Shown: positions 24,989 to 25,493 of the stretch, in pieces | Layout of the letters: every line of letters starts with the position of its first letter | Numbering within the stretch: the first letter of the stretch is position 1 | Assembly: GCF_030013595.1 (NCBI RefSeq) | Contig: NZ_CP122768.1 | Direction: 5' to 3' (one strand) | DNA: 64,000 bases | Source: Escherichia coli | GTDB lineage: Bacteria; Pseudomonadota; Gammaproteobacteria; Enterobacterales; Enterobacteriaceae | Notes under the pieces: generated by a model | Told to the model about the DNA's origin: nothing | The model's input: the letters and a program-made list of their open reading frames with translations, nothing else | The model's database searches: none | Position numbers and translations under genes: made by a program

Positions 24989-25064
24989 TGGAGCGGGAAA
25001 CGAGACTCGAACTCGCGACCCCGACCTTGGCAAGGTCGTGCTCTACCAACTGAGCTATTCCCGC
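24989..25064 (-). tRNA. glyY: tRNA-Gly (GCC), third gene of the tandem array
   Basis: 76-nt sequence; reverse complement reads gcgggaatagctcagttggtagagcacgaccttgccaaggtcggggtcgcgagttcgagtctcgtttcccgctcca. Confidence 0.95.
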
Positions 25065-25099
25065 TTGGGTGGTCTGTGCTTTACAGCACTTTCAAATTT

Positions 25100-25175
25100 T
25101 GGAGCGGGAAACGAGACTCGAACTCGCGACCCCGACCTTGGCAAGGTCGTGCTCTACCAACTGAGCTATTCCCGC
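25100..25175 (-). tRNA. glyX: tRNA-Gly (GCC), second gene of the tandem array
   Basis: Identical 76-nt tRNA sequence; 35-nt spacer to glyY. Confidence 0.95.
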
Positions 25176-25332
25176 TTAATCTTCGTCTTTCGAACCGCTA
25201 CTGCCTTGGCTGCCTTCACTCACCTTAGTCACTTACTTTTGTAAGCTCCCAAGGATTCGTTCAGTTGCCGCCTTGTCGCAATTCGAAATACTGCGATTGG
25301 GTGGTCTGTGCTTTGCAGCACTTTTCAAATTT

Positions 25333-25408
25333 TGGAGCGGGAAACGAGACTCGAACTCGCGACCCCGACCTTGGCAAGGTCGTGCTCTACCAACTGAGCT
25401 ATTCCCGC
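25333..25408 (-). tRNA. glyV: tRNA-Gly (GCC), first gene of the tandem array
   Basis: Identical 76-nt tRNA sequence; 157-nt spacer to glyX. Confidence 0.95.
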
Positions 25409-25465
25409 GTACTACTTAATTTTGCTTTCGTAATTTTCGCATTTCTGCGTCGTTACGGGAGGCGC

Positions 25466-25493
25466 ATTATACGAGAAATCTTTCCCTCTGCAA
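25466..25493 (-). promoter_or_regulatory. Putative sigma-70 promoter of the glyVXY tRNA operon (stringent type)
   Basis: Minus strand reads TTGCAG, 16 nt, TATAAT, then GC-rich discriminator GCGCCTCCC, with an A/T-rich UP-like tract upstream; about 50 nt before the glyV 5' end. Confidence 0.5.

Follow-up and report, generated by a model that had tools for sequence, protein, structure and literature searches.

The datA locus of E. coli promotes the hydrolysis of DnaA-ATP and adjoins the operon of the glycine tRNA genes glyV, glyX and glyY. The published experiments on this operon were all carried out in K-12, in which the spacers between the genes are 36 and 35 nts long and the ERIC element described below is absent. 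The operon is driven by PglyV-X-Y, and transcription from the neighbouring orn gene mostly ends upstream of this promoter (PMC10950094). A polycistronic precursor carrying three tRNAs is made from a single promoter (PMC10950094, PMC4191395). RNase E cleaves the precursor by direct entry, for which unpaired intergenic segments are required (PMC4191395, Clarke et al. 2014). The segment that was blocked in the RNase E experiment is the glyX-glyY spacer, and the major RNase E site is located 1 nt 3′ of glyY (PMC4191395). Downstream, the weak terminator or attenuator TglyV-X-Y overlaps DnaA box 1 of datA and lets transcription read through (PMC10950094, Kasho et al. 2024). This read-through from PglyV-X-Y crosses the datA IHF site and down-regulates IHF binding at datA before replication initiation (PMC10950094).

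The locus studied here lies in a stretch of 64,000 nts of E. coli DNA, the whole of which is referred to as the window. It is the known, textbook E. coli glyV-glyX-glyY operon, carried on the minus strand. Its genes and their surroundings are as follows.

25619–26164, minus strand: orn (oligoribonuclease), the upstream neighbour, from annotation.
25409–25456, minus strand: 5′ leader of the precursor, identical to K-12.
25333–25408, minus strand: glyV, tRNA-Gly(GCC), called by ARAGORN and Rfam and identical to K-12 glyV.
25100–25175, minus strand: glyX, tRNA-Gly(GCC), called by ARAGORN and Rfam and aligned with K-12.
24989–25064, minus strand: glyY, tRNA-Gly(GCC), called by ARAGORN and Rfam and aligned with K-12.
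24702–24755, minus strand: yjeV, a small ORF of 17 codons downstream on the same strand, annotated in an identical genome and in K-12.

According to the annotation of an identical genome, the array is flanked by orn on one side and by the yjeV small ORF and queG on the other, and the annotation of K-12 MG1655 places glyV, glyX and glyY (b4163-b4165), yjeV and queG at the same positions. Outside one block, K-12 and the window are ~99% identical, including the promoter, the leader, the tRNAs and the trailer, and the tRNAs are 100% identical to the K-12 copies. The first-pass annotation had read the region as three identical tandem tRNA-Gly(GCC) genes of 76 nts separated by spacers of 157 and 35 nts, which the ARAGORN and Rfam calls and the comparison of sequences confirm: the three genes are mutually identical, and in transcription order the spacers measure 157 nts (25332-25176) and 35 nts (25099-25065). 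The covariance-model scan that it had proposed calls all three, each of them reaching 69.1 bits with RF00005, a family for which the gathering score is 29. It was silent on the minus-strand orientation, on the ERIC behind the 157-nt spacer and on the adjoining datA. The operon is known, and so is the kind of repeat that it contains; the present analysis adds that the long spacer derives from an ERIC, that this ERIC is old, conserved in an RNA-type manner and polymorphic in E. coli, and how frequent two-gene arrays are. Considered as a whole, the locus is with high probability best explained as the glyVXY operon with an old ERIC in spacer 1 under RNA-level constraint, lost from K-12, and with tRNA copies that recombine.

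A match of the Rfam family YrlA at 25012-25150 (40 bits, below the gathering score of 69) spans two of the tRNAs and was rejected, YrlA having a tRNA-like module; plus-strand ORFs overlapping the array are antisense to the tRNA genes and were disregarded. Elsewhere in the window, Rfam matches the Hfq-binding sRNA STnc490 (7549-7672, minus strand, 146 bits) and a guanidine-II (mini-ykkC) riboswitch (40646-40692, minus strand, 50 bits), and a tRNA-Phe(GAA) gene lies at 54562-54637 on the plus strand.

The two spacers of the array are composed of the following parts.

25297–25332, minus strand: the original spacer 1 of 36 nts, with no difference from the glyV-glyX spacer of K-12, made of A/U-rich AAAUUUGAAAAG, a small hairpin GUGCUGCAAAGCAC (25321-25308) and then ACAGACCACCCAA.
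25176–25296, minus strand: ERIC/IRU element of 121 nts abutting the 5′ end of glyX, a clean insertion relative to K-12.
25065–25099, minus strand: spacer 2, 35 nts, with a small hairpin GUGCUGUAAAGCAC at 25089-25076, read from the sequence.

The unequal spacers (157 versus 35 nts) are thus accounted for by the 36-nt K-12 spacer plus a 121-nt ERIC. The insert is flanked by AA on both sides (25298-25297 and 25177-25176; 123 nts counting both AA), so that its boundary is ambiguous by 2 nts. Because variants specific to spacer 1 are kept in the K-12 spacer 1, the empty allele differs by exactly this block; the same variants rule out that the K-12 first spacer arose through replacement by spacer 2.

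The 121-nt block is an ERIC/IRU miniature repeat. It is an imperfect palindrome forming a 40-pair hairpin (ΔG of -44 to -51 kcal/mol, z = -4.9), at the centre of which the ERIC1R and ERIC2 primer sites, matched at 16/22 and 19/22, are adjacent and outward-facing and constitute the best such sites in the 64-kb window. The insert aligns end to end with the E. coli ERIC paralogues, among which the yeiL-psuT copy is an exact match to both primers. The family is dispersed: copies of 70-81% identity can be detected at a median of 9 places in each E. coli genome, and the six other copies examined are all intergenic (puuR-puuC, ydiJ-ydiK, rpsB-tsf, metE-metR, queA-acpH and yeiL-psuT). Regarding the TA duplication, the flanks of the gly-spacer element read TA...TA in Pluralibacter and Superficieibacter, and AA...TA(A) in E. 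coli, Salmonella and Yokenella. A search of 25176-25332 against Rfam at E ≤ 10 gave no family match, and the K-12 annotation holds no repeat feature at a paralogous ERIC site. A decayed tRNA had been suspected from a GGTTCGAA motif in the insert, and was rejected on the grounds that ARAGORN and Rfam call nothing there and that the insert aligns to ERIC. A full-text literature search returned no paper on ERIC in glyVXY, the published catalogues of ERIC loci lying outside that search.

The presence of the element varies within E. coli. Among 5,426 complete E. coli genomes, searched with a 217-nt query running across the element and both junctions with full coverage required, the ERIC-bearing spacer was found in 1,606 (~30%), with an element identity of 98.4-100% within the species. 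E. coli C carries the element, and the site is empty in K-12 and in O157:H7 EDL933. The number of tRNA genes varies as well, as a contiguous match to a synthetic two-gene array was obtained in 105 of the 5,426 genomes (1.9%). The short spacer is kept in the two-gene arrays of AVS0750 and FDAARGOS_1259 and the ERIC spacer in that of ETEC4077; since both types survive, deletions must have occurred on either side of the middle gene. The first-pass annotation had proposed that identical copies are a substrate for recombinational change in copy number, and these 105 genomes, together with S. bongori, which also has two genes, bear this out. For larger arrays, a synthetic four-copy query is fully covered by three-gene arrays in two overlapping pieces and does not distinguish expansions. 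In a single genome, that of the E. coli laboratory strain OV2 (NZ_CP195020.1), the spacer query matches just 32 nts at one place, which suggests that the gly array was deleted or heavily altered in this strain.

The conservation of the hairpin was analysed in nine related orthologues. Their consensus has 40 pairs, with 96.7% of cells paired and changes on both sides at 8 pairs; these values are reached by 0 of 500 shuffles, a control that ignores phylogeny, and slid controls give at most 2 double-change pairs. In the transcribed orientation, 34 G·U cells (12 positions) are found against 2 A·C cells. In addition, the folding energies of the sense RNA (-35 to -47 kcal/mol) lie well below those of the antisense RNA (-25 to -33 kcal/mol) in all nine orthologues. 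The G·U bias and the sense-strand folding argue for selection acting on the RNA that is transcribed together with the tRNAs, as opposed to a DNA cruciform. When the whole precursor is folded, the MFE and the centroid structures both contain the hairpin. In comparisons of E. coli with S. bongori or Yokenella, the ERIC reaches 89-93% identity, whereas the third codon positions of orn are at 61-67%, the trailer at 63-71% and the leader at 65-77%. Part of this high conservation could be due to exchange between genera, with the identical tRNA genes serving as sites of recombination. The comparison of orthologous sequences nevertheless indicates that the hairpin is under RNA-level constraint, and any function that it has must be dispensable, because the ERIC is missing in ~70% of E. 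coli and in several genera.

The main alternative is that this ERIC copy is a neutral or selfish passenger, the palindrome of which is kept by DNA-level processes with no effect on the operon. This is a possibility that we regard as rather unlikely. It would account for the intact arrays without the element in 70% of E. coli and in several genera, for the partial deletion tolerated in Klebsiella and for the fact that no phenotype is known. However, a passenger is hard to reconcile with an element that evolves much slower than near-neutral sites and shows compensatory changes at eight pairs. The ratio of 34 G·U to 2 A·C cells and the good RNA folding on the transcribed strand only are equally difficult for it, since a cruciform would be strand-neutral.

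The age of the insertion was approached through other genera, which were sampled by a pattern scan of species-representative genomes and by look-ups via the neighbouring Orn protein. The scan with GAGCTTACA missed Salmonella and Citrobacter, in which the core reads GAGCTTACT, and both were recovered through the Orn look-ups; one scan match (L007) is the glyW-cysT spacer and was discarded as a chance match. The psd-rsgA-orn-[tRNA-Gly array]-queG neighbourhood is conserved across the sampled genera, and the tRNA-Gly sequence is the same in almost all of the sampled copies, the exceptions being one copy in Klebsiella (1 difference) and one in Serratia (5 differences). The ERIC occurs at the same junction (...GATTA[A/T] followed by GCGGG) in Escherichia sp. 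MOD1-EC7003, E. whittamii, Salmonella enterica and S. bongori, the latter in a two-gene array, as well as in Yokenella, Pluralibacter, Superficieibacter and Pantoea rodasii. In Klebsiella pneumoniae, the spacer is 68 nts long and only the 3′ end of the ERIC is left. Orthologues were recovered from 7 genera besides Escherichia. No ERIC was found in the arrays examined from Enterobacter, Kluyvera, Cronobacter, Serratia and Erwinia amylovora.

A neighbour-joining tree groups the gly-spacer ERICs in a single clade that excludes the six E. coli paralogues (189/200 bootstraps), and the branching within this clade roughly follows taxonomy. The E. coli copy shares 77-100% identity with its gly-spacer counterparts and 65-72% with its own paralogues, and the gly-spacer copies share the diagnostic 3′ end GAAAGACGAAGATTA. 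The single clade and its roughly taxonomic branching point to one old insertion followed by repeated losses. Judging from these sequences, the empty allele of K-12 is most likely a precise secondary loss.

Several arrays depart from the common arrangement. In Citrobacter freundii, the orthologous ERIC has the same tRNA junction but is located in the second spacer and not in the first (L021:2421-2575), which is consistent with unequal recombination reshuffling the array. In a Pluralibacter sp., the leader between the promoter and the first tRNA-Gly (L008:5951-6082, minus strand) contains an internally deleted ERIC remnant with both ends kept, ending ...AGGATTTCGAGTTGTAGCAAGGCGGCAGCTTGAAAGACGAAGATTAA directly before GCGGG, and this suggests that an ERIC-tRNA junction was copied or moved within the array. 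The second spacer of Erwinia amylovora (L026:2440-2836) is 397 nts long, shows no relation to ERIC and includes AAAAAAAGAGCCGTACGGCTCTTTTTTT, a strong terminator-like hairpin, so that the third tRNA-Gly of this species may be a separate transcription unit. Between orn and the array, S. enterica and K. pneumoniae carry an SBP_bac_3 periplasmic solute-binding gene (L018:2108-2827 and L020:2090-2821), which is absent from this site in E. coli and S. bongori.

Since the tRNA genes are identical across genera in nearly every copy, they provide 76-nt homology arms, and the ERIC spacer might have moved horizontally between species through homologous recombination over the flanking tRNAs, which would explain both its patchiness and its similarity. 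The 100% identity of the ERIC between E. coli and Escherichia sp. MOD1-EC7003 fits such a transfer, as do the movements within arrays seen in spacer 2 of Citrobacter and in the Pluralibacter leader remnant. We nevertheless hold it to be unlikely as an account of the distribution: ERIC divergence scales with taxonomy, the 5′ part of each long spacer matches the short spacer of the same genome (e.g., in Pluralibacter and Yokenella), and the flanks of ERIC-positive and ERIC-negative E. coli are ~99% identical. It is very improbable that the element inserted repeatedly and independently at a hot-spot beside the tRNA-Gly 5′ end, with the K-12 empty site as the ancestral state. MITEs do have target preferences, and the TA...TA flanks in Pluralibacter and Superficieibacter, the position of the Citrobacter element in spacer 2 and the patchy spread among genera could be read in this way. 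However, independent insertions would not be expected to yield a single, roughly taxonomic gly-spacer clade (189/200) with a shared diagnostic 3′ end GAAAGACGAAGATTA, nor an E. coli copy closer to gly-spacer copies (77-100%) than to its own paralogues (65-72%). Finally, assemblies can collapse or expand identical tandem repeats, yet an artefact behind the three copies or the long spacer is practically inconceivable here, since the same structure occurs in 1,606 genomes and in other genera and the 1,001-nt array region is matched at 100% by complete E. coli chromosomes, which also disposes of the assembly collapse considered in the first-pass annotation.

The short spacers have a sequence pattern of their own. 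Nearly all of those in the sampled Enterobacteriaceae, as well as the first spacer of Erwinia, begin with a AAATTTGAAA-like sequence and contain a small GC hairpin. Their 3′ ends, as in 25065-25099 and 25297-25332 of the window, read ...CACCCAA just ahead of the following tRNA. Serratia and Pantoea have short spacers that depart from this pattern. The short spacers themselves appear to be constrained, probably for processing by RNase E and RNase P.

Upstream of glyV, the promoter region contains the following elements.

25500–25524, minus strand: A/T-rich tract ATAAAAACTCAAAAAAAATTTTTTA just upstream of the -35, read from the sequence; an A-run followed by T's is found in most genera.
25488–25493, minus strand: -35 hexamer TTGCAG of PglyV-X-Y, read from the sequence, with a 3/6 consensus match.
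25466–25471, minus strand: -10 hexamer TATAAT, 16 nts past the -35, read from the sequence; TCGTATAATGCGCC hardly changes between Escherichia and genera such as Serratia and Erwinia.
25457–25465, minus strand: GC-rich discriminator GCGCCTCCC, from the sequence and its conservation in 13 genera.

The 130 nts upstream of the first tRNA were aligned for 14 genera, of which Klebsiella was uninformative owing to Ns in an assembly gap. In the 13 others, the arrangement TTGC[A/G]N, 16 nts, TCGTATAATGCGCC...CCCGTA is nearly invariant, the discriminator is kept as GCGC(C/A)(T/A/C)CCC, and the sequence around them diverges. This footprint supports the promoter of the first-pass annotation, which had listed TTGCAG, 16 nts, TATAAT and a GC-rich discriminator upstream of the array, all of which are read here on the minus strand. 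A sigma-70 scan did not list the PglyV-X-Y site, because its -35 matches TTGACA at only 3 of 6 positions, and it lists no promoter-like site within the array; the conserved promoter is found upstream of the first gene only. Transcription presumably starts at or just past the 3′ end of the discriminator, and the A/T tract at 25500-25524 is a possible UP element.

A GC-rich discriminator, a 16-nt spacing and a perfect -10 are typical of stable-RNA promoters. Of the features of the rrn P1 type, PglyV-X-Y shows the GC-rich discriminator and the consensus -10 with a suboptimal 16-nt spacing, and its -35, TTGCAG, is not near-consensus (3/6 of TTGACA). From its sequence, it may be of the stringent type named in the first-pass annotation; what PMC10950094 says of ppGpp/DksA is a general statement about tRNA transcription.

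Past glyY, the operon runs into datA, where the following features are found.

24930–24970, minus strand: weak terminator or attenuator region, read from the sequence as a hairpin CAGCGA...TTGCTG followed by GTTTTTGTTG; it overlaps DnaA box 1.
24970–24962, minus strand: DnaA box 1, ATATCCACA, from the box scan.
24721–24903, no strand assigned: datA core region, a cluster of DnaA boxes ~99% identical to K-12, located according to PMC10950094.
24903–24895, minus strand: DnaA box TTATCCACA, from the box scan.
24741–24733, minus strand: DnaA box TTATTCACA, from the box scan.
24721–24729, plus strand: DnaA box TCATCCACA, from the box scan.

Four DnaA boxes with 0 or 1 mismatch thus lie within 250 bp immediately downstream of glyY and before queG. 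Over the whole window, the count of DnaA boxes is at chance level; the cluster is local. The terminator scan did not call TglyV-X-Y, the hairpin of which is also missing in the MFE fold of the whole precursor, and called a terminator-like site at 24799-24777, beyond DnaA box 2.

From these observations, a working model can be proposed. The ERIC would be transcribed inside the precursor and would fold as a self-contained hairpin of ~40 bp at the extreme 3′ end of spacer 1. Such a position would leave the A/U-rich unpaired segment after glyV free for RNase E and would preserve, for RNase P, the AA in front of glyX (-2 and -1), and the hairpin would be removed in the course of maturation. Selection would then keep the hairpin intact at the RNA level, most likely, in the simplest reading, as a structural constraint by which the insert must stay tightly folded, sparing the folding and processing of the tRNAs. 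The hairpin may also modestly influence how fast the precursor is processed, how much glyX and glyY is supplied or how far datA is reached by read-through. The identical tRNA copies, for their part, do recombine, and two-gene arrays are the outcome in ~2% of the genomes.

A stronger proposal is that the hairpin is a selected RNA element, which tunes the maturation of the downstream tRNAs or the read-through into datA, or which, once excised, persists as a stable RNA with a separate function. We consider this doubtful, the chances being small. If it were true, the natural ERIC polymorphism (present in 30% of E. coli, missing in 70%) would shift the supply of tRNA-Gly or the timing of DnaA inactivation. 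The locus offers in this respect a natural experiment, with thousands of E. coli differing only by a 121-nt structured insert in a highly expressed tRNA precursor, read-through from which regulates the replication-control locus datA. An insert that is conserved across genera with RNA-type covariation and yet is dispensable makes a clean test case for RNA-level effects of ERICs. In addition, the locus records the copy-number change of identical tandem tRNA genes in a natural population, ~2% of the genomes having two genes.

Compared with the K-12 glyVXY operon, the window shares the genes, their order and strand relationship, the promoter, the leader, the trailer and the neighbours; the difference lies in the first spacer, which measures 36 nts in K-12 and 157 nts in the window, by virtue of the 121-nt ERIC. 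As described through PMC3184786 and PMC10969869 (Sharples & Lloyd 1990; Hulton et al. 1991; Wilson & Sharp 2006), members of the ERIC/IRU family are imperfect palindromes of ~120-127 nts, a character that the insert shares. In the same accounts, the family likeness extends to a central core with the ERIC1R and ERIC2 sites and to copies that are dispersed, intergenic, co-transcribed and variable between strains. Unlike the usual ERIC, this copy is located inside a tRNA operon and abuts the RNase P site of a tRNA. Its core reads CCTTGG/CTAAGG, whereas the ERIC consensus is CCCCAG/CTGGGG, and its E. coli flanks are AA...TA(A) and not a clean TA duplication.

The mRNA ERICs of Yersinia, as reported through PMC3184786 and PMC10969869 (De Gregorio et al. 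2005), resemble this copy in being co-transcribed hairpins, which can alter RNase E access and the fate of the transcript. That work concerns the 3′ regions of mRNAs, whereas the host is here a tRNA precursor. Among tRNA operons, the spacers of metZ-metW-metV are functional. Another parallel of this kind is by analogy only: 3′ETS-leuZ, an sRNA decoy for RyhB (PMC10710024), is a transcribed tRNA-operon spacer with constraint on its sequence and structure, as is the case here. The glyVXY insert is a long near-perfect hairpin, in contrast to the single-stranded sponge site of the 3′ETS-leuZ type.
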